DNA of 64,000 bases from Candidatus Margulisiibacteriota bacterium (GCA_041661965.1 JBAZTH010000001.1:291221-355220), one strand, 5' to 3'; positions 2,441 through 35,508 are shown, numbered from the stretch's first letter. The notes: generated by a model not told the origin, from the letters alone. Numbers and translations are program-made.

Positions 2441-5125
2441 ATGAATATTGCCCAAATAGAAAAAAATATGCAAAAGCTTGTAAATTCCATACATAAGGAT
2501 AACTTTATCTATGAATTTCTCGAGGCATATGGGATACCAAAGGCATCTATCGCGAGACTTAAAAAAGGAGGATTAAACCTTTCGAAGGTTGAAGGCGAAA
2601 TATTATGGAAGAAGAAAGTATTCTTTAAACAATTGATAGGTGACCATCTCCACGAGACTATTGAAAGTATTAGAGAGAAAGAAAAAGCAACAAAACACAA
2701 TCCCCGCTTCATAATAGTAACCGACTTTATAACCTTACTTGCAATTGATACGAAAACCAACGATACACTTGATATCCCTATCCTTGAAATAGCAAGACAT
2801 TTTGACTTCTTTTTGCCCTGGGCTGGGATGGAAAAGGCTCGCCATCAAAACGAAAACCCCGCAGACGTAAAAGCAGCCGAAAGAATGGCAAAGCTATATG
2901 ATGAAATAAAACGAGAGAACCCAACTAAAACTCTGGGGGAGGCGCATAGCCTAAATGTCTTTCTTTCTCGACTCTTATTTTGCTTCTTTGCAGATGATAC
3001 TGATCTTTTCAAGAAAAATCAGTTTATTAACGCGATAAGTAGCCACACGCAGGTTGATGGTAGCGACCTACAAGCATATCTTGATAAATTGTTTGAGGTT
3101 CTTAATACAGAACCAGGAAAGCGGAAAAAGCTCCCTGCCTACCTTGAAGGGTTTCCTTTTGTTAATGGTGGTTTGTTTCGTAATAAATATGGTTTGCCTG
3201 TTTTTACAAGGCGAAGTCGACAAGAGATCATTAATTGTGGGCTGCTGGACTGGTCGGTTATTAATCCAGATATATTTGGTTCAATGATGCAGGCGGTTGT
3301 AACCCCAGAGCACCGTGGTGGGGTAGGAATGCACTACACCAGCGTTCCTAACATAATGAAGGTGCTTCGGCCTTTGTTCTTGGATGAGTTGAACGAAGTG
3401 CTTGACGTCAGCATGGGAAATCGCAAAAAACTTGAAGCATTATTGATTCGCGTCCAAAACATTAAGGTGTTTGACCCGGCCTGCGGCAGCGGGAATTTCT
3501 TGATTATCGCCTATAAGGAATTGCGAAGACTGGAAATGAAAATCTTTAGGGCTTTAAGTAGCCTGGCTTTTTCAGATATTCGATTGAGCAACTTTTATGG
3601 GATTGAACTGGATGATTTTGCCCACGAAGTGGCAATATTATCGCTATGGCTGGCAGAGCATCAGATGAATCAGGAATTCTTTAAATCTTTTGGAAGGGGA
3701 AAGCCTGCTTTGCCACTAAAGGAAATGGGGAATATTGTTCATGGCAATGCTGCCAAAATTGATTGGGAAGAAGTTTGCCCAAAAAGTACGGGGAAGGAAA
3801 TATACGTTTTAGGAAATCCGCCATATCAAGGCTCAAGGAAGCAAAATAAATCACAAAAAGACGACCTAGCATTGGTGTTTTCTGGTTTCTCAAAATATAA
3901 AGATCTTGATTATATTGCCATATGGTTTTATAAGGGAGCAAAGTATATACGAGAATCTGACGCTAAACTTGCGTTTGTTTCAACAAATTCTATTTGCCAG
4001 GGTGAACAGGTGTCTTTGATATGGCCCACGATATTCGGACTTGGTCTCCAGATATGTTTTGCTTATACATCTTTTAAATGGAAAAACAATGCAAGAGACA
4101 ATGCCGGGGTGACTGTGATTATTGTTGGCTTATCAACGGCAATAGCCCAAGATAAGTTCATATTTAGCGATTCTATCAAACATAAAGTGCATAACATTAA
4201 TGCATATTTAATTTCCGGAGAGAGCAACACATTTGTTTATTCCAGAACCACCCCCTTATCAGATATGCCAACAATGAATTTTGGAAACATGCCTGCTGAC
4301 GGCGGAAAGCTGTTGTTCACTACGGAGGAAATGAATGACTTTGTTTTAAAGGAACCTATTTCTAAAAAGTGGTTTAAGAAGCTAATTAACGCTCAGGAAT
4401 ATCTTAATGGTAGGGAGCGGTGGTGTCTTTGGTTGGAAGGAATAGCTAACAAGGAATTGCGTATGATGCCCAAAGTCTCGTCTGTTGTTAATTGTGTAAA
4501 GGAAATTAGAAAGAAATCATCCCGGCCACAACTGGCCAAAACCCCTCATTTGTTTGCTCAAATAACTCAGCCCCAAAATAAGAGTTGCATTATTGTTCCG
4601 AGGGTATCTTCGGAAAGCCGAAAGTATATTCCCATTGATTATCTTGATGGTGAAAACAAGGTTACAGATTCATTCTTTACTATTGTTACTGACCGGTTAG
4701 AAGTATTCTCTATTGTTACTTCTTACATGCATATGGTTTGGCTGGCCTACATTGGGGGTAAATTGGAAACAAGATATCAATACTCAAAGAATGTCGTTTA
4801 CAATACTTTTCCGATCCCCTTGATTTCCGTTAACCAAAAGAAGGAATTAGAGAAAAATGTTTACCGAATTCTAAAAGAAAGAGAAATGCATAGTGAAAAA
4901 ACACTCTCACAATTATATGATCCTGATAAGATGCCAGAAGGGTTGCGCGAAGCCCATCACCAGAACGATCTTGCAGTAGAAAGCTGCTATCGTAGCCAGC
5001 CCTTTGAAAGTGATGAAGAACGATTAGAATGTCTTTTCAAACTCTATGAGCAAATGATTGCAGATGAAAAGACCAAGGGGACTTTGTTTGAAGCAGAATC
5101 AAAAACCAAAAGAAAAAGGAAGTAA
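2441..5125 (+). CDS. MmeI-like gamma-class N6-adenine DNA methyltransferase with embedded target-recognition region, 894 aa (Type IIL/IIG-like)
   Basis: Motif I VFDPACGSGNFLI (about nt 3470–3510) and motif IV GNPPYQG (about nt 3815–3835). Size and N-terminus resemble the MmeI/PglX family. About 36 % GC. Confidence 0.75.
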   Translation: MNIAQIEKNMQKLVNSIHKDNFIYEFLEAYGIPKASIARLKKGGLNLSKVEGEILWKKKVFFKQLIGDHLHETIESIREKEKATKHNPRFIIVTDFITLLAIDTKTNDTLDIPILEIARHFDFFLPWAGMEKARHQNENPADVKAAERMAKLYDEIKRENPTKTLGEAHSLNVFLSRLLFCFFADDTDLFKKNQFINAISSHTQVDGSDLQAYLDKLFEVLNTEPGKRKKLPAYLEGFPFVNGGLFRNKYGLPVFTRRSRQEIINCGLLDWSVINPDIFGSMMQAVVTPEHRGGVGMHYTSVPNIMKVLRPLFLDELNEVLDVSMGNRKKLEALLIRVQNIKVFDPACGSGNFLIIAYKELRRLEMKIFRALSSLAFSDIRLSNFYGIELDDFAHEVAILSLWLAEHQMNQEFFKSFGRGKPALPLKEMGNIVHGNAAKIDWEEVCPKSTGKEIYVLGNPPYQGSRKQNKSQKDDLALVFSGFSKYKDLDYIAIWFYKGAKYIRESDAKLAFVSTNSICQGEQVSLIWPTIFGLGLQICFAYTSFKWKNNARDNAGVTVIIVGLSTAIAQDKFIFSDSIKHKVHNINAYLISGESNTFVYSRTTPLSDMPTMNFGNMPADGGKLLFTTEEMNDFVLKEPISKKWFKKLINAQEYLNGRERWCLWLEGIANKELRMMPKVSSVVNCVKEIRKKSSRPQLAKTPHLFAQITQPQNKSCIIVPRVSSESRKYIPIDYLDGENKVTDSFFTIVTDRLEVFSIVTSYMHMVWLAYIGGKLETRYQYSKNVVYNTFPIPLISVNQKKELEKNVYRILKEREMHSEKTLSQLYDPDKMPEGLREAHHQNDLAVESCYRSQPFESDEERLECLFKLYEQMIADEKTKGTLFEAESKTKRKRK

Positions 5126-5127
5126 TT

Positions 5128-7059
5128 ATGCCAGATATAGTTCATGTGACTTATTCACAAACAGGGCAAAGTTCTAAAACTAACGCTTTAGGCATGCGTG
5201 AAATGCAAGAGAAAGCATTCCAGTCAAGGGATGCTCAGTACTTGTTACTAAAAGCGCCTCCTGCCTCGGGTAAGTCGAGGGCATTAATGTTTATTGCCCT
5301 TGATAAGATTATGCATCAGGGGCTTAAAAAAGTGATTGTCGCGGTTCCAGAAAGGTCGATCGCGGGATCATTCAGTAAGACGAATTTAAAGGATTATGGA
5401 TACTTTGCCGATTGGGACCCAAATCCTAACTACAATCTTTGCACCCCCGGGCTCGATGGGAGCAAAACAAAAGTGCAAGCTTTTAAGAACTTTCTGGATA
5501 ATGATGAGAAGATTATGATCTGTACTCACGCAACGCTGCGTTTTGCCTATGAAGAAGTGGATGAATCAAGGTTCAACAATATTCTATTGGTTATAGATGA
5601 GTTCCATCATGTGTCGGCAGATTACGATAGCCGCTTGGGTGAGGTGTTGCGCTCAATTATGCAACATACAAGTGCTCATGTTTTTGCTATGACCGGCTCA
5701 TATTTTCGCGGAGACACTGTGCCTGTCCTCTTGCCAGAAGATGAGGCCAAATTTACTAAGGTAACTTATAACTATTATGAACAGCTAAATGGCTACATAT
5801 ATTTAAAATCGCTTGGTATTGGTTACCATTTTTATCAAGGCCAATATACTTCAGCCATAATGGATATATTAGACACAAACAAGAAAACTATTTTACACAT
5901 ACCAAACGTAAACTCTGGGGAATCGACTAAGGATAAGCATAATGAAGTCGATACTATATTAGATGCTATTGGGGAAGTTCAAAGAGTAGACCCCGACACA
6001 CAAGTTATATATGTGAAACGGCATGGAGACGGTAGAATACTTAAGGTTGCTGATCTGGTAAATGATAATCCAAGCGATCGAGACAAGATTATTACCTACC
6101 TCCGCAACATGAAAACACTTGAAGATATGGATCTAATAATTGCATTAGGCATGGCAAAAGAGGGTTTTGACTGGCCATTTTGCGAGCATGCATTAACTGT
6201 TGGCTATAGAGGTTCTTTGACAGAAATTATTCAGATAATTGGGCGTTGTACAAGAGATAGCAGCAATAAAAGCCATGCCCAGTTCACGAATTTAATCGCT
6301 CAGCCTGATGCCGCAGACGCTTTAGTAAAGCTATCTGTGAATAATATGCTGAAAGCTATAACGGCCTCTCTATTAATGGAGCAGGTATTGGCGCCAAACT
6401 TTAAGTTTAAAACCAAACTATCAGATGAGGACAAGTCCGCTCCTAGTGAAATCAAAATTAGAGGACTCAAGCTGCCAAGCTCAAAGAGAGTAAACGACAT
6501 AATTGAATCTGATTTGAATGATTTAAAAGCAACCATCTTGCAGGACGACACAATGTTGAAGGCAATGCCTGGTAATGTTGATCCTGAAGTAATCAATAAG
6601 GTGTTAATCCCCAAGATTATTAAGCTTAGGTATCCTGACTTGTCAGAAGAGGAGGCAGAAGAGGTTCGTCAGTATGTGGTTGTTGATTCCGCGATCAAAA
6701 CCAGCGAAATAAAGGATTCGGGGGGGAAAAGATTTGTCAGAATGGCTGGTCAATTTGTAAACATTGATGACCTTCATATAGATCTAATCGATAAGATCAA
6801 TCCTTTTCAAAAAGCGTTTGAAATACTATCAAAATCAGTAACGACAAGGGTTTTAAAGGTTATTCAAGATGCTATTGAGGCCACAAGAATTCAAATGACT
6901 ATGGAAGAAGCAGTAATACTCTGGCCGAAAATCAATGAATTTGTTAAAACATTCAATAGGCAGCCAGGTATCCAATCCTCGGACCCGTTAGAAAGAAGAA
7001 TGGCGGAAGGAATTATCTATTTAAAGGATCAAAAGCGAAGAAAGCAAAATGGACAATAA
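5128..7059 (+). CDS. SF2 (DEAD/DEAH-type) helicase/ATPase, 643 aa
   Basis: Walker A LLLKAPPASGKSRAL, motif II VIDEFHHV, motif III MTGSYFRGD, motif VI QIIGRCTRD. Starts 3 nt after the methyltransferase gene. Confidence 0.75.
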   Translation: MPDIVHVTYSQTGQSSKTNALGMREMQEKAFQSRDAQYLLLKAPPASGKSRALMFIALDKIMHQGLKKVIVAVPERSIAGSFSKTNLKDYGYFADWDPNPNYNLCTPGLDGSKTKVQAFKNFLDNDEKIMICTHATLRFAYEEVDESRFNNILLVIDEFHHVSADYDSRLGEVLRSIMQHTSAHVFAMTGSYFRGDTVPVLLPEDEAKFTKVTYNYYEQLNGYIYLKSLGIGYHFYQGQYTSAIMDILDTNKKTILHIPNVNSGESTKDKHNEVDTILDAIGEVQRVDPDTQVIYVKRHGDGRILKVADLVNDNPSDRDKIITYLRNMKTLEDMDLIIALGMAKEGFDWPFCEHALTVGYRGSLTEIIQIIGRCTRDSSNKSHAQFTNLIAQPDAADALVKLSVNNMLKAITASLLMEQVLAPNFKFKTKLSDEDKSAPSEIKIRGLKLPSSKRVNDIIESDLNDLKATILQDDTMLKAMPGNVDPEVINKVLIPKIIKLRYPDLSEEEAEEVRQYVVVDSAIKTSEIKDSGGKRFVRMAGQFVNIDDLHIDLIDKINPFQKAFEILSKSVTTRVLKVIQDAIEATRIQMTMEEAVILWPKINEFVKTFNRQPGIQSSDPLERRMAEGIIYLKDQKRRKQNGQ

Positions 7060-8242
7060 TAGGATACTGGAAGAAATATTCAACAATGACCCGTTGGGTT
7101 TATTAAATATTAAGCCAACGTCTTCGCCACAGCAGAGTAAGGATGAAAGACTCATTGCGACATTTTATAAAATTAATGAATTCTATGAAAAGAACAACCG
7201 TGAGCCCCAACAAGATGGGAGTATCCAAGAATATCAATTATATGCAAGATTAAAGGCCATTAGGGACGACCGGTCAAAAAGTAAAATGCTTGTTCCTTAC
7301 GATAACCATCTTCTGCTGAATGTCGAGCATAAACAAATTAATACATTGGAGGATGTTGTAAAAGATGATGTGTTAGGGCTGCTTGAAGATGATTCCGAAG
7401 GCTTATTTAATATTAAGCACATTGGGGTCCAGGATGAAAGAGCGAGCGCTGATTTTGTTGCCCAGCGGAAACCATGTAAAGACTTCGATAAATACGAGCC
7501 AATATTTAGGGCGGTCCAGGAGGATTTGGCGCAGGGTAAGAGAAAAATAATCATGTTTAAGGAAGATGTCCTTCGGGAGGGCGGCTTTTATGTCCACAAT
7601 GGCGTTTTGCTCCAATTGGAAAAAGTTGAATTTAAGCAAGGGGTGGCCCCGTTCAAAAGTGGGGATAGATTACGGAAGGATGGCAGGACAAGAGTAATAT
7701 TTGAAAATGGAACAGAGTCCAATATGCTCTATCGCTCCCTATATAAAGCTTTGCTTGCAAATGGAAGGGCAGTATCAGAAAACGTAGATCGTGTAAATGA
7801 GAGCTTTGTTGAGAGATTTAGTAATATTACTAATGAGGACGAAGCGGCCGGTTATATCTATATACTCAAGTCGAAAAGCGAAAAAAAGGAGATCAGGGAA
7901 ATAAAACATCTCTATAAGATAGGATATTCAAAGACAACAGTTGAGGATAGGATTATCAATGCTAATCAGGACCCAACATATTTAATGGCTGATGTGCAAG
8001 TTCTTATGGTCTTTAAGTGTTTCAACCTTAACCCCCAGAAGCTTGAAATGTTGCTACATAACTTTTTTGGTAAATCCTGTTTGAATATTGATGTGTTTGA
8101 TGCGGTTGGTATTCGGCATACTCCAAGAGAATGGTTTATTGCCCCTTTGTCAGCAATTGAACAAGCAATAAAACTTATAATAAGTGGTGAAATAGTTAAT
8201 TATAGATATGATGGGGACAACGAGATTATCATTAATCGGTAA
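7049..8242 (+). CDS. Protein with C-terminal T5orf172 (GIY-YIG-related) domain, 397 aa. Putative nuclease/effector subunit.
   Basis: C-terminal GYIYILKSKS…LYKIGYSKTTVEDRI…PREWFIAPLSAIEQAIKLI matches the T5orf172/MUG113 pattern (GyvYvl…KIGyT…R…EWF). Overlaps the helicase gene by 11 nt. Confidence 0.6.
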   Translation: MDNNRILEEIFNNDPLGLLNIKPTSSPQQSKDERLIATFYKINEFYEKNNREPQQDGSIQEYQLYARLKAIRDDRSKSKMLVPYDNHLLLNVEHKQINTLEDVVKDDVLGLLEDDSEGLFNIKHIGVQDERASADFVAQRKPCKDFDKYEPIFRAVQEDLAQGKRKIIMFKEDVLREGGFYVHNGVLLQLEKVEFKQGVAPFKSGDRLRKDGRTRVIFENGTESNMLYRSLYKALLANGRAVSENVDRVNESFVERFSNITNEDEAAGYIYILKSKSEKKEIREIKHLYKIGYSKTTVEDRIINANQDPTYLMADVQVLMVFKCFNLNPQKLEMLLHNFFGKSCLNIDVFDAVGIRHTPREWFIAPLSAIEQAIKLIISGEIVNYRYDGDNEIIINR

Positions 8243-8429
8243 TAAAAACGACCAAATTAGGTTTAATGTTGGATGTAGAAGAAGGTGCAGGGTTGAAAAT
8301 ACTTTTATTGTGCTGGCTTTGATGGAGAGTTCCCTGTTTTTATGGTGAAGACTACTCCGTCACTATCCTCATCACGTTCTTTACTAAGAATGTGAGCTGT
8401 TTTTGATCGCAAAATGACTAATTATTAAA

Positions 8430-9374
8430 TCAGCTGGAAAAGGGCAATGCAACCATATGTTTGCTTAAAGGAGTGCCTTCGTCGTGCAATGAAAATTGTT
8501 CATATTCCCATTTCCCATTTTTACATATACTACTTTTTGTTAAGCTGAATGATTTATGATGCCCGCTATTTCTAAAGAACCCTTTTCGCTTATTTTGCTT
8601 AAGTAATATCTGTCTAATAGGGGTTGCAATATTGTATTTAAATGAGCCTTTATCGCATTGGAAAACACAGGCCTTAAAAGCTCCTAGTAATAAATCGGTT
8701 ATTTGTAATAGATGTGCGCGATTTTGGTCGGAGCAATCCGGGCTTTTGTGATTGCTCAAAATTGGAATAATATCCATGCTATGATCGAAATCAATAAAAG
8801 CTTCTTTATCGGGATGTAAGCGACCAATAATTCGTTTCTTATCGAGAGGCCGGCTCCAGCCTATTCCATCCGTGTAAAAACCAGTCAGCTTAACTTTGTG
8901 ATCATCGCCGAACAAAAAATGAAGGCCGCTTTTTAGTCCAATTCGTAAAAGCGTTTCAACTTTCCTTGTATATATTTCTGTCTTATCAGCTGAGCCGTAA
9001 TAAAGCGAACTCATTGTTGATGTGTTCCTTTTAAAAAATAGAACAAATTTACAACATGGGGGAATAATACCCCAGAGATGCTTATTGTGTCTTTTACTGC
9101 GTAAAGCATCTTCCATTAGTATTAAAATATCTTTTGCCGTTTTATGCTTAATATTTTCTGTTGTTCCAGTTAAATCATTGTAATGCAGTTTGCTGTCATT
9201 GTTATACTTAGCTCTGATCTTGCCTATCTGTGAGAGGATTATAGGTTTTATTCTGGTTGGAATAAATAAAAAAGCATGTATTACGTGGTTATCTTTGCTT
9301 TCATCGTGATAAACCTCATATTCGTCCCACTCGGGGAAAATATTGTACGGTTTTATATTGAATAATGTGTCCAT
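8430..9374 (-). CDS. DUF3800-family protein
   Basis: N-terminal EVYHDESKDNHVIHAFLFIP resembles the DUF3800 'YIDESG…' start. ATG at 9374 preferred over the TTG at 9398. AT-rich, like the neighbouring restriction-like genes. Confidence 0.5.
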   Translation of the reverse strand: MDTLFNIKPYNIFPEWDEYEVYHDESKDNHVIHAFLFIPTRIKPIILSQIGKIRAKYNNDSKLHYNDLTGTTENIKHKTAKDILILMEDALRSKRHNKHLWGIIPPCCKFVLFFKRNTSTMSSLYYGSADKTEIYTRKVETLLRIGLKSGLHFLFGDDHKVKLTGFYTDGIGWSRPLDKKRIIGRLHPDKEAFIDFDHSMDIIPILSNHKSPDCSDQNRAHLLQITDLLLGAFKACVFQCDKGSFKYNIATPIRQILLKQNKRKGFFRNSGHHKSFSLTKSSICKNGKWEYEQFSLHDEGTPLSKHMVALPFSS

Positions 9375-9723
9375 AAAGATAAAGCCCCACTTTTTCAAGT
9401 CTTTCTTTGTGTAGCTAGAACTAGCTAGCAGGCATCATTTTCCCTTCTCCCAGCTTCTCCATTGTAGCATTTTTCCGCCTATACCCTGTCAAGGGGTCGC
9501 TCGCAGATATACATCAATAAAAATCTAATGTAGCTCGCGCCCCTCTGCTCCAGTCGTCCTCGACTCGCCCTCACATTAAATCAATGAAGCATTATAGTTC
9601 GGGCTTGCTCGTCCTCTTTTCGCGCCCTCCACCGATCCGCTCGTTATCCCTCGCGGATCGGCTCCGGGTGACAGGGGCGAAAAAATGCTATTGGCATGGC
9701 ATCTTTTTTGGGAGGTGTCGCTT

Positions 9724-10251
9724 ATGGTACGTGTCGTTGGCTTCATTGGTTCCCGCTCCTTGCCCGCTTCATTTTCTCCTCTTGTTTCCTCGTCCGTTTC
9801 CCTCTTTTTGTCCCGTGGCTTCCGGGTTGCTTCCGGTGGCGCTTTGGGGGCTGATTCATTCGCCCTCTCTGCCTTGCTCCGGCAGGGGGCCGCTTCTTCC
9901 GGGGTGCTATTCTCCGCTTGGCAGTCCGCTTCTGGGTTCCCTGCTTCGGTTCGTCCCCAGGTCAGCCGGTTCCTTGCTTCCGGCGGCCAGGTCGTTTGGG
10001 GTTCTGCTTCGCCCGGCGCGTCCCGCCAGCAGGCTGTCTCCGCGCTTTTGGGCCGCAACCGGCGGCTGGCCTCTTCCTGTTCGGTTCTGGTGGCTTTCCT
10101 CTTCGGTCCTTCCCGCGGCTCCCTTTTTACGGTGCGTCAGGCGGTTAGCCGTGGCGTTCCGGTGGTGGTTTTCCTTTGCGGGGGCGGGGCTGCTTTGCCC
10201 CCTGATCTAGCCAGGCACTGTTTTATTTTCAACAAAAAGGAGGTGCTTTAG
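9724..10251 (+). CDS. Minimal DprA/Smf-like Rossmann-fold protein, 175 aa
   Basis: VVGFIGSRSLP…RVASGGALGADSFALSAL…GRNRRLASSCSVLVAF…RGSLFTVRQAVSRGVPVVVF aligns with the DprA core (VGSR…SGxAxGID…RNRiisgLs…sGsLiTa). RBS GGGAGGTG 8 nt upstream. Coding strand strongly A-depleted. Confidence 0.5.
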   Translation: MVRVVGFIGSRSLPASFSPLVSSSVSLFLSRGFRVASGGALGADSFALSALLRQGAASSGVLFSAWQSASGFPASVRPQVSRFLASGGQVVWGSASPGASRQQAVSALLGRNRRLASSCSVLVAFLFGPSRGSLFTVRQAVSRGVPVVVFLCGGGAALPPDLARHCFIFNKKEVL

Positions 10252-10430
10252 TGGCTATTTCAGTTTTGTCCCCATGTCTGCAGTGCGGCAGCTTACTGCC
10301 AGGAGTTAGATGCCGTCCTCACAATCGGACCAGATGCGCCCGGTTTCTTAACTATGTTCAGTCTCTTAGCAAAAACCGCGCCCACCACATTCTGATCAAA
10401 GAATTGAAAGAATTAATTATCAAAAATTAA
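10251..10430 (+). CDS. Possible small Cys/His-rich (zinc-ribbon-like) protein, 59 aa, translationally coupled via TAGTG
   Basis: AGGAGG 8 nt upstream of the GTG; CLQCG…C…H…C. Weak support. Confidence 0.3.
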   Translation: MAISVLSPCLQCGSLLPGVRCRPHNRTRCARFLNYVQSLSKNRAHHILIKELKELIIKN

Positions 10431-10439
10431 GATTGATCA

Positions 10440-10473
10440 TTGTTTGGTTATTGCGTCTTGGTTATTGGTTATT
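10440..10473 (+). promoter_or_regulatory. Copy C of the repeated leader element
   Basis: TTGTTTGGTTATTGCGTCTTGGTTATTGGTTATT, followed by AAAAAAGGAGG and the ATG at 10494. Confidence 0.6.
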
Positions 10474-10493
10474 TAAAAAAGGAGGTGTTTCAG

Positions 10494-10667
10494 ATGAGAA
10501 GATGTTCTGTTTGCCGGGCATTGCTGACCCCTTGCAACGAGGGGCTTGATCATATCGGCTTCGAGCCGTACACGCTCAACCGGGTGGTCTTCATTTGCCA
10601 GGGTTGCTTGAACTCGATCCAAAATCAGATCGAATATGGCATATCTTATCAATATGCCGAGGTTTGA
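10494..10667 (+). CDS. Small cysteine-rich protein (CxxC…CxxC), 57 aa
   Basis: RBS AGGAGG then ATG; MRRCSVCRALLTPCNEGLDH…FICQGCLNSI; followed by a terminator. Confidence 0.5.
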   Translation: MRRCSVCRALLTPCNEGLDHIGFEPYTLNRVVFICQGCLNSIQNQIEYGISYQYAEV

Positions 10668-10678
10668 TCCCATCAGGC

Positions 10679-10717
10679 CCGCTTCCTTCCACCAAAGGGA
10701 AGCGGGTCATTTTTTTG
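10679..10717 (+). terminator. Rho-independent terminator
   Basis: Hairpin CCCGCTTCCcTTccaccAAAGGGAAGCGGG followed by TTTTTTT. Confidence 0.7.
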
Positions 10718-10753
10718 GTGATTATCTCTTGGTTATTTAGTGGTCATTGAATT

Positions 10754-10787
10754 TTGTTTGGTAATTGTTTCTTGGTAATTGGTTATT
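10754..10787 (+). promoter_or_regulatory. Copy D of the repeated leader element
   Basis: TTGTTTGGTAATTGTTTCTTGGTAATTGGTTATT, then AAAAAAGGGAG and the ATG at 10809. Confidence 0.6.
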
Positions 10788-10808
10788 TAAAAAAGGGAGT
10801 TGGTAAAA

Positions 10809-11207
10809 ATGGGTGAGTATATTAAAAACATTGCGACCGGGGAAGAGATAAAGATCGGGGTCATGGATAATTGCTTTTTTAGTCGGGCGGAGATCAAGGA
10901 GTGGCTGTTCGATCCCGATTGGGTCGGTTGGTATGCCGGCAAGGAAGAGGCCGGGACGCTTGAGTCGTTTTACGACAATCCCGGTACTTTATACGATGGG
11001 ATTCCGGGGTTGATCCGGAAAGATTTCGCGATCCTTGTCCCTTTGGGCGATTTGGAAGTTTGCGATCATCGCAAAGTTGATGTTTGGAAGAAAGGGAAGC
11101 GCGGGACTGGCTATCAATACACGGTTGAGTGCGAATTTAAGGGGAAGAACGAGCTGTGGGCGGCAGTTGGGCAATTTTTGCTTGCGATTGTTGCGACACT
11201 TTATTGA
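10809..11207 (+). CDS. Hypothetical protein, 132 aa
   Basis: ORF directly downstream of leader copy D with an RBS. No recognisable motif. Confidence 0.45.
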   Translation: MGEYIKNIATGEEIKIGVMDNCFFSRAEIKEWLFDPDWVGWYAGKEEAGTLESFYDNPGTLYDGIPGLIRKDFAILVPLGDLEVCDHRKVDVWKKGKRGTGYQYTVECEFKGKNELWAAVGQFLLAIVATLY

Positions 11208-11307
11208 GTCTTCCCCAGGAGTTGATTAATAAAGCCTTAGAGCAAATGAGTCCGGACCAGCGAGAGTATCTTACGCCGTTGCTAAAAGGGAGATCCTGAT
11301 CCATAAA

Positions 11308-11331
11308 GGGGGCGGAAGCGCCCCCTTTTTT
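11308..11331 (+). terminator. Rho-independent terminator
   Basis: GGGGGCGgaaGCGCCCCC followed by TTTTTT. Confidence 0.7.
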
Positions 11332-11347
11332 GTGGTCGCCGGTATAT

Positions 11348-11376
11348 TTGACAACTCAAGCGATGAGTTGTATCAT
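11348..11376 (+). promoter_or_regulatory. Sigma-70-like promoter (TTGACA-17-TATCAT) with a perfect palindromic operator in the spacer
   Basis: TTGACA at 11348–11353; palindrome ACAACTCAagcgaTGAGTTGT at 11351–11371; -10 TATCAT at 11371–11376, about 40 nt before the HTH gene. Confidence 0.5.
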
Positions 11377-11415
11377 ATGGTAACAAGTAGTAATAAGTAG
11401 TAGGAGGCGGTAGCA

Positions 11416-12237
11416 ATGAGTAGCCTGGTTGTTGGTAAATCGTGGCTGACATTGGAAGAGCTTTCCCAGTATCTTTGTTTCAGCAAAGAGAAGATATATT
11501 TACTGCTAAAAGCCAGACAAATTCCAGCGGTGAAAGTCGGACGGCACTGGCGCTTTAACCGGCAACATATCGATGAATGGTTAATAAGTTTAACCCCATC
11601 CGTAGAACAAAAACCGGAGAACACGGAAAAACAACAATATTCAGCTTCGTTGGGGATTGTCGGGCCTGCTGGGTCGATCAAAGTTGTCTTGCAAAAAGAA
11701 GTTGTTGATCCAAAACTCCAAAACGATTTATGGGCAACCTATCACGATACTTTTGAAAGAAACAAGGAAAAGGCGGCCCAAGATCAGCGTTCTTACGATC
11801 GATCGACTTTTATTGACGCGTTAACCGATCCGGATTATCTTAAATTCGTTCTGGTCAAAGACGATTCGATCAAGGGCTTAAGTTTGGCGACCAATAATTT
11901 AGATAAGGCCCGTATTGTTTACATGAATCCGGAATACTTCAAAACCCGATACCCCAATTTTGCTCAAGCCGGAAAAATCTTTTATGTTACCGCTCTAAGC
12001 GTGATCTCCGGCTTTCATGAATTAAAGGGAATCAATGAGCTTTTGACGACCATGATCCATTTTATCGACCAAAACGAAGCGGTCGTCGCCTTTGATTATT
12101 CGGAAAATAAAAATCATTTTCTCCCTGATCTGATCCAACTGCTGGCCAGGCGGAATAATATCCCGGTGATCGGCAATAAACTGGATGCACAGGTCTATTT
12201 TGAAATATATGGTGAAAAAAACCGTCAGCCGGAGTAA
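11416..12237 (+). CDS. Excisionase-family HTH DNA-binding domain protein with an uncharacterised ~200-aa C-terminal domain
   Basis: N-terminal LTLEELSQYLCFSKEKIYLLLKARQIPAVKVGRHWRFNRQHIDEWL matches the HTH_17/excisionase signature (…TIYRLIKRGELPAYKIGRRWRI…DLDEWL). Confidence 0.55.
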   Translation: MSSLVVGKSWLTLEELSQYLCFSKEKIYLLLKARQIPAVKVGRHWRFNRQHIDEWLISLTPSVEQKPENTEKQQYSASLGIVGPAGSIKVVLQKEVVDPKLQNDLWATYHDTFERNKEKAAQDQRSYDRSTFIDALTDPDYLKFVLVKDDSIKGLSLATNNLDKARIVYMNPEYFKTRYPNFAQAGKIFYVTALSVISGFHELKGINELLTTMIHFIDQNEAVVAFDYSENKNHFLPDLIQLLARRNNIPVIGNKLDAQVYFEIYGEKNRQPE

Positions 12238-12249
12238 AATTAGTCGTAG

Positions 12250-14187
12250 ATGCACCAGAACTATCTCATTTATACACCAATCTTAGCGGCTTCTTTAGTT
12301 TTAAGCCTGTACATTCTATTCCGTGATTCAAAAAACGGCCCTCATCGGGTCTTAAGCGCCCTGATCTTCTCTCTTTTTGTTTGGGTCTTTTGCCTGCTGA
12401 TAACTGACACGACGCAGGACCTATCGACCGCTCTATTTTGGGGGAGAATGGCGATCATTGGTCCCTCTTTTATTCCGGCCTTGTTCCTTTGCTTTACGTT
12501 AGTATTTCCAAAAGTAAATCTGACCGTTTTCCGGTTAATAACGATATTGTTGCCGGCCTTAGCCTTTACTGTTTTATCGCCGACGGCGCTTAATGTCGAA
12601 GCGGTGGCGATCCATGGTTGGGGGACGGAGATATTTCCTGGGGTTCTCTACCGCTATCTGTTGGCATATTTTTTGGTTTATTTTGGTTTGGCTTTTATTC
12701 TCTTATTCCAAAATTATCAAAACGGTCCAATCTCGACCAAAAACCAGATCAGGTATGTATTTTTTGGCGCGCTTATCGCGGTGCTTTTAGGTTTATGCAC
12801 CAATTTGATCTTAATTGAATTTGGCCTTTCGCAATTCAGTGTTTTAGGGCCTTTTTCCACGTTAATCTTTTCCGCTGTTACCGCTTACGCGATTATTAAA
12901 CACCGCCTGATCGATATTTCGGTCGTTATTAGTCGGTGGGTCGCGGAGTTGGCGGCCGCTTCCATTTTTAGCGTGATCTATCTCGCTTTAGCCTGGGGAT
13001 ATAAAGCTTTTTTTGCCAACGCTCTTAATTTGCCGTTTATTATTTTGACTTTAATTTATGGTTTTATGGTCGCCCAATATCATCTACGGGTCAGGCTGTT
13101 TATCCAAACTACCTCCGACAAGCTGATCCTGCGCGGTAAATATGACTACTATCAATCATTGGCGAATGTCGGCCTTGAGATCAATAAAAGCCTTTCCCTG
13201 GAGAATATTAAGGCGACTTTGCGCCGGGTCTTTTTTGAGGTGATGGAGGTTTCCAATCCCAGGCTGTTTCTCCCGGCCGATTTTTCCCGTCCGGAAGTTA
13301 AAGCGCTTATCGCGGAGGAGATCGTTTTCAAAGGAAATGATCTGGTCATTCCCTGCCGGATCGAGAACCGGCTTGTTGCCCTGATCGCGCTGGGGAAAAA
13401 ATTATCGGAGGATGCCTATACTGACGAGGATTTGCGCCTCCTTAACTCTTTGTCCAGCCAGGTGGCGGTGGCGATCGATCATACCAGGACCTACGATGAG
13501 ATCAAGAAAGAGCTGGAAACAGCCCAAGTTCAACTCGACCGCGCCCAGCGGCTGGCCGCGCTGGGAACGATTGCCGCCGGCGTGGCCCACGAGATTCGCA
13601 ACCCTTTGACCGTTATCCAGACGGAAACTGATATATTGGTGAAAGCCCCGAAGGGGGTGGAAGAGTTAAAGACTTTCCAGGAAAAAGTTACTTCTCATAT
13701 CAAAAGAGCGACCGCTATTATCAGGAACATGCTTAACCTGACAAAAAGCGAAAAAAGAGTGGAATTACCGGTCGACCTCAATGCGCTTATTGAGGCGACG
13801 ATCGGCTTCTTTTCTTTGGACCGGATAGTTTTGCGGAAGGAATTGAAGCCGCTTTCCGTGATCAAAGGCAATCCTGATGAGCTTCGGCAGGTCTTGGTCA
13901 ATCTTATTGATAATGCCCTGGCTGTAATGCCGGAAGGGGGCGCTCTGGGGATAAAAACGTATCAAACAGAAGGGCATGTTTTTATTGAGGTTTCCGATAC
14001 CGGACCGGGGATCGCTAAAGAAAATCTTTCCAGGATATTTGACCCATTCTTTTCGACCCGGCATGATGGGGCTGGCTTGGGGTTGTCGATAGTTTACCGA
14101 ATTGTCAGGGAGCATGGGGGCAAGATTGAAGTGAAAAGTCCCTCCGCCGATCCGGAGTTCAAGACAACTTTTATTCTTTCTTTTTAA
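12250..14187 (+). CDS. Sensor histidine kinase with N-terminal multi-TM sensor domain
   Basis: About 230-aa polytopic N-terminus; H-box GVAHEIRNPLTVI; N/G boxes LIDNALAV…DTGPGI…GAGLGLSIV. Confidence 0.8.
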   Translation: MHQNYLIYTPILAASLVLSLYILFRDSKNGPHRVLSALIFSLFVWVFCLLITDTTQDLSTALFWGRMAIIGPSFIPALFLCFTLVFPKVNLTVFRLITILLPALAFTVLSPTALNVEAVAIHGWGTEIFPGVLYRYLLAYFLVYFGLAFILLFQNYQNGPISTKNQIRYVFFGALIAVLLGLCTNLILIEFGLSQFSVLGPFSTLIFSAVTAYAIIKHRLIDISVVISRWVAELAAASIFSVIYLALAWGYKAFFANALNLPFIILTLIYGFMVAQYHLRVRLFIQTTSDKLILRGKYDYYQSLANVGLEINKSLSLENIKATLRRVFFEVMEVSNPRLFLPADFSRPEVKALIAEEIVFKGNDLVIPCRIENRLVALIALGKKLSEDAYTDEDLRLLNSLSSQVAVAIDHTRTYDEIKKELETAQVQLDRAQRLAALGTIAAGVAHEIRNPLTVIQTETDILVKAPKGVEELKTFQEKVTSHIKRATAIIRNMLNLTKSEKRVELPVDLNALIEATIGFFSLDRIVLRKELKPLSVIKGNPDELRQVLVNLIDNALAVMPEGGALGIKTYQTEGHVFIEVSDTGPGIAKENLSRIFDPFFSTRHDGAGLGLSIVYRIVREHGGKIEVKSPSADPEFKTTFILSF

Positions 14188-14738: not shown

Positions 14739-15659
14739 ATGCGCATCTATCTTAAAGATTCCCATTGGTTGGAATACTTGAGATATCGACGACTTTCCCG
14801 GTTGTCTCGATCGACTCACGAGAAAATCCGGATCGAGATTGGTTTGTATTTCAGTTATTTAAAGAAAGTCGGCATAAAGTCAATAAATGAAGCAAACGAG
14901 GAAATGGTCAGTGATTATTTGCTCGATTGTAAAAACAGTAAATATTGGCTGACTGGACGGAAAAGAAGCGTTTTTACCATTGCTTATAAGCGGATGCTTC
15001 TTTGGAATTATTACGAATTCCTGCAAAAAAATGGCTACTACCCGGTTAATCCCTTTAGGAATATCCCCCCTTTATTGTTACCGAAGAAAATCCCTCCTTA
15101 TTTATCAACGCGGCAGATAATCAAGCTCTTTAAGGTGGCGGTTAGAAACAAAAAGCGGCCGACCCAATTTCAAATAAGATTGCGGGCTTATATGGCTTTA
15201 TTGTTTTTCTACGGACTGACAAACCACGAAGTGTTCAGGATAAGAATTAAAGACCTAGATTTCCTTAATGGGGTTATTCTTATTCGCCGGACAAGAACTC
15301 ATGATAGACGTGCTTTGCCCTTATTCTCCCCGATTACAAGCTGGTTGCAGGATTATATTGAAATCCGACCCAAAAGAAGATCTCCCAACTTATTTCAATG
15401 TGTAAAAAGAAAAAGTCATTACAGCTATTTTAGTTCAAGGGGCGATTTACTGCATATATCAAGGAAACTTCATTTTCCGGTGAGTGCCTCAATTATTCGA
15501 AACACCTTTTTTGTAATTATGAGCAATAACCGGGTCGAGCACCGGGTTATTCAGGCGATCGTCGGTTCCCACACGATAAGAACAATAAAAAAACGAGCAA
15601 GCAAGAGTCTCGCCGGCAAAAGAGAAACGGTTGAGAAATATTTGCAGGGCATTACATGA
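14739..15659 (+). CDS. Tyrosine recombinase (phage-integrase family), first of a trio. C-terminal motifs atypical.
   Basis: Integrase-like core (…LFFYGLTNHEVFRIRIKDLD…, LHISRKLHFPVSASIIRNTF) but no canonical LGH…T..Y box. Stop overlaps the next start (ATGA). Confidence 0.55.
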   Translation: MRIYLKDSHWLEYLRYRRLSRLSRSTHEKIRIEIGLYFSYLKKVGIKSINEANEEMVSDYLLDCKNSKYWLTGRKRSVFTIAYKRMLLWNYYEFLQKNGYYPVNPFRNIPPLLLPKKIPPYLSTRQIIKLFKVAVRNKKRPTQFQIRLRAYMALLFFYGLTNHEVFRIRIKDLDFLNGVILIRRTRTHDRRALPLFSPITSWLQDYIEIRPKRRSPNLFQCVKRKSHYSYFSSRGDLLHISRKLHFPVSASIIRNTFFVIMSNNRVEHRVIQAIVGSHTIRTIKKRASKSLAGKRETVEKYLQGIT

Positions 15660-16549
15660 GGTTAAATAAATGCGTAAGGTCCTATATGTCGGGGAACAAG
15701 CATATTAAAAGGCTATCGATAAACACCATGGTTTTTCAAAAACGAGTTCTTGCTAAATATCTTCCCGATGTTCTGACTGTCGAAGACATTACGGTCAAAA
15801 TGATTCAAACGATATTTGATTTGATGAAAAAGGAAAGGGTTTCGCCGGCGACCATTCGATCTCGCTATGCGATAATAATGGCGTTTCTTAATCATTGCTA
15901 TCGCCACAAACACCTGAAATTCAACCCTTCTTTTACTATTAAAAAAATCAGGAAATATCGAGCCCAAAAAATCCCTTTGAATGGGCTGGCATTGCGCAAG
16001 ATGTTGGACGTTAATATTAACTATCGTTATTGCCATGATTTTCAATATTATCGGAATAAAGCAATTATTGGCCTGCTGATTTATACTGGCTTGAGAGTCG
16101 GAGAGGTTGATCGTCTGCGGAAAGACGATGTTCATGACGACTATGTAAATATAATTGCCGGGAAAGGGCGGTTTGATCGGGTCGTGCCTATTCAAGAGCC
16201 GCTGATTTCCTGGCTAGCCAATTACTTAAAAAGCCGTAAACACTTTCATTCAAACCGTCTCTTTATCGGTCTGTTCAAAAAATCGCAATTCAATCGCAAT
16301 ACCGTAAACATAATTGTTAAAAATGTGGCGCGCGCGGCTAAAATTCGAAAGAAAGTATATGCCCATTTGTTGCGGCATTCGTTTGCCAGCCAAATGTTAA
16401 AAGGCCGGGTCGATCTGGAAGACTTACGGCAAATAATGGGGCATCAGAACCTTGAAATGACCGCGATGTACGCAAAACCAGATTTTGAAATGGTGAAGGA
16501 AGCGTTATTATCAAACCCAATGGTAAAGATATTAGGAGGTGAAAAATGA
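15656..16549 (+). CDS. Tyrosine recombinase (XerC/D-like), second of the trio
   Basis: GLRVGEVDRL…AHLLRHSFASQMLKGRVDLEDLRQIMGHQNLEMTAMYAK (R…HxxR…GH…Y). Confidence 0.75.
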   Translation: MRLNKCVRSYMSGNKHIKRLSINTMVFQKRVLAKYLPDVLTVEDITVKMIQTIFDLMKKERVSPATIRSRYAIIMAFLNHCYRHKHLKFNPSFTIKKIRKYRAQKIPLNGLALRKMLDVNINYRYCHDFQYYRNKAIIGLLIYTGLRVGEVDRLRKDDVHDDYVNIIAGKGRFDRVVPIQEPLISWLANYLKSRKHFHSNRLFIGLFKKSQFNRNTVNIIVKNVARAAKIRKKVYAHLLRHSFASQMLKGRVDLEDLRQIMGHQNLEMTAMYAKPDFEMVKEALLSNPMVKILGGEK

Positions 16550-17940
16550 TTGCGATCAAACAGGTGTGGTCGAAAAGGAAAATCATTGAAGGGATAAGGC
16601 TTTTATTTGTTGAACATGGGACGATAACTCCCCGTGAAATACGAAGAGATTATGCTCGTTTATATAATGCCACCCAGAAGCGTATTTATTTTGGCGGCTG
16701 GCTGAAAGCGGTTGAAGCTGCGGGCTACGCGGATAAATACGAAAGGATCCTGGATAAAGCACGCAGGCAAGCTTTAAATCGGCGGAAAAATACTAGGGAC
16801 AAGTGGAGTAAGGAAATAATTCAGGAGAAAATCCGCGAGATTCATGCTACCGGACAGTCATTGTATGGCAAATACATCAAAAAGTCTCATTATAATTTAT
16901 TGCATGCGGCTCACAGTAAGTTGTACTTTGGAAGTTGGAAAGCGGCGGTTGAATCAATAGGAGTTAATTACAGCAAATATGAGCGAGGATATCGCAAAAA
17001 GAAAAAAAGATTTGTCTATGTTATCAATGACCGAAAATACCGCGAGTTTCTTAAGGCTTGGCAGAAACAACTTGTTTTACATAATTATCATCGGGTCACG
17101 ATAATTAAAAAGCTGAGAGACGCGCAGAAATTTATTGGATTCTTTGTGAATAAACGTCAAATAAAGTCGTTGGCCGAACCCGATGTTAGAAAGTATTTAT
17201 GCTCAAAAGAGATCAAGCGATTGTCGGCTAATACTGTGGGGGGTACCATTCTTTCTCTCCGTCAATTTATGGAATTTTGCGTCAAAAACGGAGTGGCCAA
17301 AAACAATCCGTTTGATGAGATCGAACGCCCCCAATATAAACTTAGTGGCTCTGCAGCGTTAAGTGAACAGGAATTGGCGCGTTTTGTCGGTGCAATTGAA
17401 GAATTGCCTTTTAATGAATTGCTGAGAATACGGGGACGATTAATGATTGAGTTGATCGTATATTGTGGTTTAAGACAGCAGGAAGTGACCTCGCTAAAAC
17501 GGCAAGACATTGATCTGGTTGAAATGACTTTGAAAGTGGAGCAGGGGAAGCGAAAAAAGGACCGGCTTATTCCAATAAACGAGGCGTTATCTGGAACAAT
17601 AACAAAATATCTGAAATTGAGAGGCCATAACTATGGTCGCTATTTGATAACCAATCGAATGAACAATCGACAGATTAATTCGATTGTGTTTTATAATCTA
17701 TTTCGTTTGCTTTCAATAAAAGCGGGGTTAAAGATTGTTGTTACCCCTCATCTTTTACGGACCACCTTTGCTACGATCTTATTCGATCGGGGGGCGCCCA
17801 TCAGGGCGATACAAGAGCTTATGGGGCATACATTTGTCAACACAACTGCAAGATATATTCAGGTCTCAATTGGTTACTTGAGAAAGGAGATGAGTAAGCA
17901 CCCTTTATTGGCCGCGAGCCTCGATAATAAGAAGTCATAA
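16546..17940 (+). CDS. Tyrosine recombinase, third of the trio, with a ~170-aa N-terminal extension carrying an internal duplicated motif
   Basis: C-terminal GLRQQEVTSL…PHLLRTTFATILFDRGAPIRAIQELMGHTFVNTTARYIQ. N-terminal repeats LYNATQKRIYFGGWLKAVEAAGY and LLHAAHSKLYFGSWKAAVESIGV. Confidence 0.75.
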   Translation: MIAIKQVWSKRKIIEGIRLLFVEHGTITPREIRRDYARLYNATQKRIYFGGWLKAVEAAGYADKYERILDKARRQALNRRKNTRDKWSKEIIQEKIREIHATGQSLYGKYIKKSHYNLLHAAHSKLYFGSWKAAVESIGVNYSKYERGYRKKKKRFVYVINDRKYREFLKAWQKQLVLHNYHRVTIIKKLRDAQKFIGFFVNKRQIKSLAEPDVRKYLCSKEIKRLSANTVGGTILSLRQFMEFCVKNGVAKNNPFDEIERPQYKLSGSAALSEQELARFVGAIEELPFNELLRIRGRLMIELIVYCGLRQQEVTSLKRQDIDLVEMTLKVEQGKRKKDRLIPINEALSGTITKYLKLRGHNYGRYLITNRMNNRQINSIVFYNLFRLLSIKAGLKIVVTPHLLRTTFATILFDRGAPIRAIQELMGHTFVNTTARYIQVSIGYLRKEMSKHPLLAASLDNKKS

Positions 17941-35322: not shown

Positions 35323-35508
35323 ATGGCAAAAGAGCAAATTATTTACAATATGACTGAGTTGGCGAAAGAGCTTAAGGTTACGCGGCAAGCAATTTATAAG
35401 TGGATAAAGAAGGGTTGGGTTAAACCAAAAAGGGATTATCGTGATTATCCGGTATTTACCGAAGCTGATGTTAAGAAAATTATGAAATGGAAATCAGCAA
35501 TAAAATGA
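35323..35508 (+). CDS. Small HTH DNA-binding protein (excisionase/MerR-like; possible recombination directionality factor), 61 aa
   Basis: MAKEQIIYNMTELAKELKVTRQAIYKWIKKGWVKP; stop overlaps the recombinase start (ATGA). Putative TTGACA promoter at 35284. Confidence 0.55.
   Translation: MAKEQIIYNMTELAKELKVTRQAIYKWIKKGWVKPKRDYRDYPVFTEADVKKIMKWKSAIK

Follow-up and report, generated by a model that had tools for sequence, protein, structure and literature searches.

A predicted YeeA(DnmA)-YeeB-YeeC cassette in Candidatus Margulisiibacteriota, a member of a trio that probably provides restriction-like phage defence

A second set of MmeI homologues, with YeeA/DnmA from Bacillus subtilis as its type, was described by Morgan et al. 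(2009; PMC2731913). Members of this set lack the PD-ExK nuclease and were reported to be 'invariably' adjoined by a YeeB-like DEAD helicase and a YeeC-like GIY-YIG protein. A split, Type I-like division of labour was already proposed in that study, and the trio was offered as a link between the Type II MmeI enzymes and the Type I systems. YeeA and MslORFHP gave no endonuclease activity when expressed alone (Morgan et al. 2009), as is expected under a three-protein model. The authors of the Type ISP work likewise drew attention to relatives in which the helicase is a separate subunit and the nuclease is of GIY-YIG type, and noted the relationship of their enzymes to MmeI-family sites and to such relatives (PMC3553950). 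The trio was taken up again in 2020, 2021, and 2023, when the methylase was named DnmA and genetic tests were done. In B. subtilis, DnmA makes m6A at GACGAG, and plasmid transformation is unrestricted by the trio (Nye 2020). The B. subtilis trio gave no protection against phages Nf, phi29, and SBS-PhiJ, phage genomes show no avoidance of the DnmA site, and the localisation of DnmA responds to RNA-DNA hybrids. Deletion of dnmA changes the expression of some genes, and it was proposed there that the partner genes are relics; the B. subtilis copies of YeeB and YeeC are reported to be without C-terminal stretches. In Vibrio crassostreae, yeeAB mediates resistance to P1b_red phages, and its inactivation leads to sensitivity to some phages (Piel 2021). 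No system name or mechanism is assigned to the trio in the literature surveyed.

Here, we analyzed a stretch of 64,000 nucleotides (the window) from Candidatus Margulisiibacteriota. Judged by the published description of the B. subtilis trio (YeeA NP_388558, YeeB AAB66475, YeeC AAB66476), that is by domains and gene order, the window appears to carry an intact cassette of the YeeA(DnmA)-YeeB-YeeC family. The first protein is MmeI-like beyond its first ~100 residues and lacks PD-ExK at the positions corresponding to D70, E80, and K82. A DEAD-superfamily helicase gene follows directly 3' on the same strand, and then a GIY-YIG/T5orf172 gene. The features of the region are:

2441..5125, + strand: yeeA/dnmA-like gene, 894 aa; MmeI-family gamma-class N6-adenine methyltransferase with a fused target-recognition domain (TRD)
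2441..2914, + strand: MmeI_N-like N-terminal domain, aa 1-158, in which the PD-ExK catalytic triad is missing
3413..4165, + strand: methyltransferase catalytic domain, aa 325-575 (MmeI_Mtase 2.7e-107), with FDPACGSGNF at aa 344-353 and NPPY at aa 459-462
4223..4822, + strand: TRD, aa 595-794 (MmeI_TRD 1.7e-67), the segment in which the protein varies most
5128..7059, + strand: yeeB-like gene, 643 aa; SF2 (DEAD/ResIII-type) helicase or translocase
7049..8242, + strand: yeeC-like gene, 397 aa; C-terminal T5orf172/GIY-YIG domain
7850..8179, + strand: predicted T5orf172/GIY-YIG-superfamily nuclease domain, aa 268-377, with GYIY, YKIG, R301, H337, and E361-W-F
8372..8395, + strand: terminator-like hairpin with a T-run behind it, located in the interval from the yeeC stop to the convergent 322-aa ORF (consensus scan only)
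8430..9398, - strand: 322-aa ORF, convergent to the yeeC-like gene

The three coupled ORFs of the original prediction are present, the '3 nt' between the methylase and helicase genes being a start-minus-end offset that corresponds to 2 nt of intergenic sequence. A purine-rich AGGAAG lies immediately 5' of the helicase ATG, and the helicase and yeeC-like genes overlap by 11 nt. The catalytic motifs are intact in all three proteins of the cassette. The GC content of 2441-9398 was measured as 0.386 (38.6 %) and not the ~35 % first given; adjoining stretches are at 0.41-0.49, and 0.54 is attained only at the rpoBC/ribosomal end of the window. The hairpin between the convergent genes might mark the end of the operon; by consensus scan, terminator-like sites were not commoner in the region than in shuffled sequence. 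Among the other ORFs of the window, we found no PglZ/BrxC, DUF1998, HsdS, or HsdR, in agreement with the original prediction, and the neighbours match unrelated families; DrmA, DrmB, and DrmC were not found in the window either. The 322-aa ORF had been taken for a DUF3800 gene. This could not be upheld, as no Pfam family, DUF3800 included, was matched even at E<=10. The ORF gave no PHROG or PADLOC match and has only six homologues, all without a precomputed Pfam domain. It was found next to none of the related cassettes (0/80 loci) and lies outside the cassette; it may be related to DUF3800 too remotely for HMM detection.

The assignment of the 894-aa protein to the MmeI-type gamma-class methyltransferases was confirmed by five Pfam domains (MmeI_N 3e-32, MmeI_hel 6e-24, MmeI_Mtase 3e-107, MmeI_TRD 2e-67, and MmeI_C 5e-20) and by a phmmer alignment to the MmeI structure 5hr4 (E=3e-181) that covers residues 83-873 and leaves residues 1-82 unaligned. 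Its best PADLOC match is REase_MTase_IIG (1001 bits, full length), followed by distant matches to DrmMI (3e-31) and PglX (1e-9); the NCBIfam PglX models score 17-39 bits against cut-offs of 400-900. In Pfam, the relationship of the cassette to N6_Mtase is weak, as is that to ResIII as a link to Type I. Both the methyltransferase domain and the TRD had been recognised earlier, while the degenerate MmeI nuclease-like domain at the N-terminus had been overlooked. To examine this domain, the window copy and 60 homologues (61 YeeA-like sequences) were aligned with MAFFT, the MmeI N-terminus being verified against 5hr4. MmeI D70 is replaced by E in 53 sequences, E80 by K or R in 53, and K82 by V, E, A, or T; in the window copy, E80 and K82 align with K and Q, respectively. 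The domain is still conserved, with an identity of 0.44-0.60 per 50-aa block, and is an MmeI nuclease-like domain that has become catalytically degenerate through loss of PD-ExK. Following Morgan et al. (2009), it presumably serves as a docking domain for YeeB and YeeC. The residues of the FDPACGSGNF and NPPY motifs are kept in 59-61 of the 61 sequences, and identity per block is 0.29-0.45 in the TRD versus 0.52-0.68 in the rest of the methylase.

The 643-aa protein matches DEAD (4.7e-10) and ResIII (9.6e-8) in Pfam and contains the motifs PPASGKS, DEFH, TGS, and QIIGRCTR, consistent with the SF2 helicase with DEFH and QxxGRxxR that had been predicted. An ATPase core (~aa 24-416) is followed by a family-specific C-terminal domain (~aa 430-643). 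Motifs I, II, III, and VI do not vary among the 80 sequences compared (80/80). The helicase has >8000 homologues, the best matches being 81-85 % identical across phyla, and an identity of 62-85 % is kept across phyla. No related solved structure was found in the PDB by sequence or profile, Type ISP chains included, and structure prediction gave a pLDDT of only 50.6. In PADLOC, the helicase is weakly similar to PbeA.

In the 397-aa protein, the N-terminus is helical and the middle domain rich in beta structure; for the C-terminal domain, the T5orf172 assignment was sustained by Pfam (at residues 268-377, T5orf172 9e-11 with 42.7 bits where the cut-off is 20, and MUG113 2e-13) and by a BFVD fold search that led to T5 Orf172 proteins; the fold also matches SLX1 nucleases. 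PF10544 and PF13455 are found in all 120 YeeC-like homologues among the matches listed, and the GIY-YIG residues (Tyr, Arg, His, and Glu) are kept in 68-69 of 69 sequences. Annotation of viral proteins labels T5orf172 as DNA-binding. PADLOC has no model for the YeeC-like protein.

In order to survey the neighbourhoods, as the original prediction had proposed, we used the best 80 loci by helicase match, from 80 species genomes in >12 phyla, a sample that takes in Bacillus, Vibrio, and Moraxella species and in which B. subtilis is absent. Of the loci with enough flanking sequence to be informative, all those with >=3 kb upstream of the helicase have a co-oriented MmeI-like gene there (64/64), and all those with >=1.3 kb downstream have a YeeC-like gene as the next one (71/71). 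The yeeB/yeeC junction is overlapping or has a gap of <=150 nt in all but one of the latter (70/71). Together with the invariant catalytic motifs, this conserved gene order bears out the predicted distribution of specificity and methylation, motor, and nuclease over separate polypeptides. No further conserved gene was found in the flanks of related loci. At the methylase-helicase junction, 27/64 loci have co-oriented genes for RhuM, Fic/DOC, SLFN_AlbA_2-HATPase_c_4 (Schlafen), PIN, AIPR/Abi_C, HamA, or YhcG. Cargo of the RhuM/Fic/AlbA_2/Abi kind is also known from the interior of Type I R-M operons. The finding is modest but new, in that it marks the methylase-helicase junction as a hotspot of co-oriented defence cargo. 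The helicase has matches in 265 plasmid records, of which 120 are conjugative, and the family is present in at least ~600 species genomes from many phyla; the cassette family is thus mobile.

We consider it fairly likely that YeeABC is an ATP-dependent, Type I/Type ISP-like R-M system split over three polypeptides, in which restriction depends on the methylase subunit. The family is the branch of MmeI homologues in which the N-terminal PD-ExK nuclease has been lost and the methylase always has an SF2 helicase and a GIY-YIG/T5orf172 protein as partners. The MmeI-like subunit would recognise a short asymmetric site via its fused, fast-evolving TRD and put an N6 methyl group on one adenine, thereby marking host DNA. 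At an unmethylated site on incoming DNA, the nuclease-dead N-terminal domain would recruit YeeB, which would translocate along the DNA using ATP, and YeeC, translationally coupled to YeeB, would cut the DNA with its GIY-YIG domain. What our analysis shows is domain identity, the loss of PD-ExK, motif conservation, synteny, TRD variability, and mobility; that the proteins form a complex, that it translocates, that YeeC cleaves, and that DNA is hemimethylated in the Margulisiibacteriota host, we infer. More generally, the trio is widespread and probably defends bacteria against phages in a restriction-like manner.

Points weighed against the restriction model were the negative plasmid and phage tests in B. 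subtilis, the lack of site avoidance, and the 'DNA-binding' label of T5orf172. Some of these would fit a BREX-like, methylation-guided defence without cleavage at unmodified sites, in which YeeB and YeeC block replication or act on forks, ssDNA, or R-loops and T5orf172 is mainly a DNA binder or nickase. No cleavage has been reported for the family, phages do not avoid the site, DnmA responds to RNA-DNA hybrids, and there is the weak PADLOC similarity of the methylase to PglX/DrmMI and of the helicase to PbeA, as well as the viral T5orf172 annotation. We nevertheless regard this alternative as rather unlikely, given the invariant Tyr, Arg, His, and Glu of the GIY-YIG domain and its fold match to SLX1 nucleases, the absence of BREX/DISARM partners from the window, and PglX scores that lie far below the cut-offs.

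Slightly less probable still, and offered as a speculation, is that the YeeA-YeeB junction constitutes a docking site for embedded abortive-infection effectors, which YeeABC would hold latent and which would be freed upon phage anti-restriction attack, a 'guarded R-M' like EcoprrI-PrrC, with YeeBC as a distinct, unclassified ATP-dependent R-M type. The effectors concerned would be RhuM, Fic/DOC, Schlafen/AlbA_2-ATPase, PIN, AIPR, and HamA, and the R-M type would be set apart by a nuclease of the GIY-YIG kind, a motor on a polypeptide of its own, and methylation of one strand.

The B. subtilis results, namely no restriction of plasmids or of the three phages used, no motif avoidance, and altered expression upon dnmA deletion, have also been read as those of an orphan epigenetic methyltransferase for gene regulation, with the helicase and YeeC as non-functional R-M relics. 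For the cassette in the window, we find this improbable. The three ORFs in the window are intact, with YeeB and YeeC of full length where the B. subtilis copies reportedly lack C-terminal stretches, the motifs are invariant across 69-80 species, the helicase keeps its identity across phyla, and synteny was complete among informative loci; this indicates strong purifying selection on all three genes and not decay. Furthermore, Vibrio knock-outs lose phage resistance.

Automatic annotation would make the first gene a stand-alone Type IIL/IIG MmeI-type R-M enzyme with two unrelated neighbours, on the strength of the full-length REase_MTase_IIG match and the MmeI_N domain. The replaced E80/K82 equivalents, the members of the set without endonuclease activity, and the partners present at every informative locus make this highly improbable. 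That the cassette is a previously undescribed defence system, as originally predicted and as the missing PADLOC model for YeeC and the want of a name or mechanism for the trio in the literature surveyed could suggest, can hardly be maintained, because the same set and the same functional hypothesis were published in 2009 (PMC2731913) and revisited in 2020, 2021, and 2023; the system is thus known and not new.

With the locus in the window, a known trio gains a further copy, this time in Candidatus Margulisiibacteriota. The family merits attention for its broad spread and because it was proposed seventeen years ago as a link between Type II and Type I, and defence finders currently mislabel it as a Type IIG enzyme. 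Besides the cargo hotspot at the methylase-helicase junction, our additions are the quantitative synteny and the strict conservation of three catalytic centres, the latter of which argues against the relic view.

Compared with known systems, the cassette is closest to DnmA-YeeB-YeeC from B. subtilis and to yeeAB(C) from V. crassostreae 7F1_18, with which it shares an MmeI homologue whose first ~100 aa are devoid of PD-ExK and, 3' of it on the same strand, the genes for a DEAD-type SF2 helicase and then a T5orf172/GIY-YIG protein; a local low point in GC or a mobile setting is likewise common to these loci. It differs from the B. subtilis locus in its host, represented by a MAG, and in its full-length helicase and YeeC. 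The methyltransferase and C-terminal regions of BREX PglX and DISARM DrmMI are MmeI-like and distantly related to the window methylase, with scores far below family cut-offs; a BREX or DISARM assignment was rejected, as PglZ, BrxC, DrmA, DrmB (DUF1998), and DrmC do not occur beside the methylase. MmeI itself (Type IIL/IIG, 5hr4) is homologous from residue ~83 to the C-terminus, through spacer, methyltransferase, TRD, and C-terminal domain, and probably has single-strand modification in common with the window methylase. However, MmeI is ATP-independent and without conserved neighbours, whereas the window methylase has lost the PD-ExK triad and has helicase and GIY-YIG partners; a Type IIL/IIG assignment was rejected for lack of a fused active PD-ExK and because the partners are conserved. 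With Type I systems (HsdM/HsdS/HsdR), the cassette shares a multi-subunit make-up, an ATP-dependent SF2 motor, and, as expected, methylase-dependent restriction. The Type I nuclease is a PD-ExK domain fused to the motor and not a separate GIY-YIG protein, and the site of the window system is, in contrast to Type I, probably an uninterrupted, asymmetric one that receives its modification on a single strand. As the methylase carries a fused TRD, the cassette has no HsdS, and with neither an HsdS nor an HsdR family in the window, assignment to Type I R-M was rejected. The Type ISP enzymes LlaGI and LlaBIII combine the same activities: nuclease, SF2 motor, gamma-class N6A methyltransferase, and a TRD for an asymmetric, hemimethylated site. 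A Type ISP assignment was rejected in view of the three ORFs, their other order, the GIY-YIG nuclease, and the lack of a PDB match to Type ISP chains. What Type ISP carries on one polypeptide, in the order Mrr nuclease-helicase-methyltransferase-TRD, is distributed in the window over three: methyltransferase-TRD, helicase, and GIY-YIG protein.

The cassette in the island at 2441-9398 is an added member of a known, mechanistically uncharacterised gene trio, represented in Bacillus subtilis by YeeA (DnmA), YeeB and YeeC. All four ORFs of the island were recovered at the positions originally predicted:

2441-5125, + strand, methylase (894 aa)
5128-7059, + strand, helicase (643 aa)
7049-8242, + strand, YeeC-like protein (397 aa)
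8430-9398, - strand, convergent neighbour (322 aa)

The tight coupling predicted for the first three genes was likewise observed. Only 2 nt lie between the methylase stop and the helicase ATG (a start-minus-end offset of 3), with AGGAAG just 5' of this ATG, and the helicase and YeeC-like genes overlap by 11 nt; the cassette thus fits one translationally coupled operon. The predicted dip in GC content is real but smaller than had been stated, at 0.386 for 2441-9398 (0.358 for the 322-aa ORF alone) against 0.448 (1-2440) and 0.476 (9399-14000) in the flanks. GC for the whole window is 0.481, and 0.54 is reached only at the rpoBC/ribosomal end. Promoter and terminator scans of the region performed no better than on shuffled sequence, direct repeats did not define att-like borders for the island, and the island DNA had no megablast match in E. 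coli genomes or in plasmids.

The methyltransferase (MTase) domain and TRD originally assigned to the first gene were both confirmed, but the protein is really a full-length MmeI homologue, as judged by the presence of all five MmeI Pfam domains (N, helical spacer, MTase, TRD and C), a PADLOC match to REase_MTase_IIG (1001 bits), the similarity to the MmeI crystal-structure sequence 5hr4 (E=3e-181) and the motifs FDPACGSGNF and NPPY. The phmmer alignment with MmeI starts at methylase residue 83, corresponding to MmeI residue 103, and searching with the N-terminus by itself did not extend it. The MmeI N-terminal sequence was checked against 5hr4 and then aligned with the window methylase and its relatives. 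In this alignment, the catalytic D70-X9-E80-X-K82 of MmeI has no counterpart in the 61 YeeA-like sequences, where the E80 position is K/R in 53, the K82 position is V/E/A/T and the D70 position is E. Identity in the N-terminal domain is 0.44-0.60 per 50-aa block, on par with the methyltransferase core, and conservation is lowest in the TRD (0.29-0.45). Automatic tools would wrongly annotate the methylase (2441-5125; plasmid match H4, NZ_CP053372.1) as an intact Type IIG/IIL restriction enzyme, though the nuclease triad is lost.

The second gene encodes an SF2 ATPase (DEAD, 5e-10; ResIII, 1e-7) in which motifs I (PPASGKS), II (DEFH), III (TGS) and VI (QIIGRCTR) show no variation in 80/80 sequences, followed by a family-specific C-terminal region of ~210 aa. 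Neither single-sequence nor profile searches of PDB sequences gave meaningful relatives of the helicase or the YeeC-like protein, and an AlphaFold model of the helicase (mean pLDDT 50.6), built on a shallow alignment of sequences >=81 % identical, was discarded. Helicase homologues number >8000, and the best 120 show 81-85 % identity even though their hosts are Bacteroidota, Nitrospirota and others. Exhaustive searching of representatives clustered at 50 % identity gave 396 matches at E<1e-30, and when one genome per species was scanned, the helicase was located in at least 597 genomes, of which 80 loci were kept for comparison. These loci cover Bacteroidota, Planctomycetota, Chlamydiota, Lentisphaerota, Spirochaetota, Desulfobacterota, Campylobacterota, Pseudomonadota (including Vibrio, Moraxella and Pseudomonas), Bacillota, Actinomycetota, Melainabacteria and three CPR phyla. 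As a route to a direct link with B. subtilis YeeB, cluster names were looked up for ten diverse helicase representatives, and B. subtilis is absent from them; on this point the pLOCK 0919 paper offers just primers. By tblastn, the helicase gene is preceded by a co-oriented MmeI-like gene in 64/64 loci that extend at least 3 kb upstream of it, and followed directly by a YeeC-like gene in 71/71 loci that extend at least 1.3 kb downstream. No fourth conserved gene was found in the flanks, the largest flank cluster comprising 5/47 loci. The helicase matched 265 plasmid records, including 120 conjugative ones, and is almost never present in phage genomes. For a defence gene its conservation is unusually high, with 62-85 % amino acid identity over >12 phyla; in the same loci, its partners show 32-64 % (methylase) and 32-69 % (YeeC).

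A modest new point is the cargo found between the methylase and helicase genes, which lie 0.5-6 kb apart in 27/64 loci; the inserted genes are almost exclusively co-oriented. They encode SLFN_AlbA_2+HATPase_c_4 (8-9 cases), RhuM (8) and Fic/DOC (3), as well as PDDEXK_3, PIN, Bro-N, HamA, YhcG/DUF1016, AIPR, Abi_C and AAA_21/DUF4276. Examples from individual helicase loci are:

L001:8236-9888; L004:4199-5053; L047:4617-9738; L060:2830-8683, inserts between MmeI-like and helicase genes (related loci L009-L088)

The helicase-YeeC junction is never interrupted, and the window copy is insert-free at the methylase-helicase junction. Type I R-M operons host a matching cargo repertoire, and the likeness supports a defence role.

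The DUF3800 identity originally proposed for the 322-aa ORF was unsupported, with no Pfam, PHROG or PADLOC match, and is rejected on present evidence; its sole DUF3800-like trait is an N-terminal YHDESKD. Only six homologues, all without a Pfam domain, were found in 5.8 billion proteins, and the ORF occurs in 0/80 related loci. It is an orphan neighbour. A 100 % match assigns the window to a Candidatus Margulisiibacteriota MAG. The cassette is surrounded by recombinase genes, and one or more mobile elements seem to make up the first ~37 kb of the window. Features of these surroundings include:

L006:636-2093 (L006, the longer contig), upstream integrase-AAA fusion
1078-1305, Sigma70_r4-only ORF, 5' of the cassette
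1389-1772, + strand, with L006:2137-2547 and 4236-4577, two 23S rRNA intervening sequence protein (PF05635) genes and a short Poly_export ORF, 5' of the cassette
9685-10251, + strand, short DprA-like ORF (188 aa; DNA_processg_A, profile positions 45-186 of 212)
14739-17940, three consecutive tyrosine-recombinase genes (306, 297 and 464 aa)
19661-33364, + strand, single 4567-aa ORF, flanking ORFs without Pfam matches
35487-37295, large serine recombinase (602 aa)

The DprA-like ORF immediately follows the island in a GC-rich patch (0.51-0.57) and could be a gene cut short at an insertion boundary. A T/G-rich repeat of 60-90 nt (TTGGTTATTGAGTTTTGTTTGGTTATTGTCTCTTGGTAATTGGTTATTGA...AGGAGG) flanks the cassette on both sides (43-104, 1286-1425, 1766-1866, 10426-10487 and 10701-10801), each copy having a Shine-Dalgarno-like end immediately 5' of a small ORF; the repeat may serve as a common leader or promoter.

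The best-supported reading of the cassette is a restriction system, ATP- and methylase-dependent, whose functions are divided among three proteins. YeeA would recognise the site and mark one strand with m6A, its nuclease-dead N-terminal domain would recruit YeeB, which would translocate on DNA, and the GIY-YIG domain of YeeC would cleave the DNA. The domain identities, PD-ExK loss, strict co-occurrence, translational coupling and TRD diversification are established here, and the catalytic residues of all three enzymes are invariant; complex formation, translocation and cleavage we infer. The main rival, a non-cleaving, BREX-like mode, is considered unlikely. No endonuclease activity was found for YeeA or a Moraxella member (Morgan et al. 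2009, PMC2731913), and YeeA, renamed DnmA, forms m6A at GACGAG and plasmid transformation was not restricted (Nye et al. 2020); as originally predicted, BREX partners are absent within the window, as are those of DISARM and Type I. In Vibrio crassostreae 7F1_18, resistance to one phage group is lost when yeeAB is inactivated (Piel et al. 2021). The B. subtilis copy has been termed a relic, its YeeB and YeeC being without C-terminal stretches, and it gave no protection against three Bacillus phages, nor is its site avoided (Fernandez et al. 2023), but the conservation data oppose a relic as the general explanation.

A stand-alone Type IIL enzyme, as MmeI is, is effectively excluded, and so is a new system: the trio, which the original prediction did not recognise as described, was reported together with the same hypothesis by Morgan et al. 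(2009, PMC2731913). The prediction was mostly right in what it observed and functionally sound in its interpretation, but a rediscovery. These authors divided MmeI homologues into two sets, the second without the PD-ExK motif, unlike MmeI in the first ~100 residues and "invariably" adjoining a YeeB-like DEAD helicase and a YeeC-like GIY-YIG protein; this synteny was later confirmed at positions +1 and +2 (Fernandez et al. 2023). In the literature searched, we found no later paper with a mechanism or system name for the trio. Feature-by-feature membership tests led us to reject BREX, DISARM, Type I and stand-alone Type IIL. In the 2009 proposal, the MmeI-like subunit provides specificity and host modification, and its altered N-terminal domain engages a separate helicase and endonuclease, a connection also drawn by the Type ISP authors (PMC3553950); Morgan et al. 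(2009) viewed the arrangement as Type I-like, but with single-strand modification.
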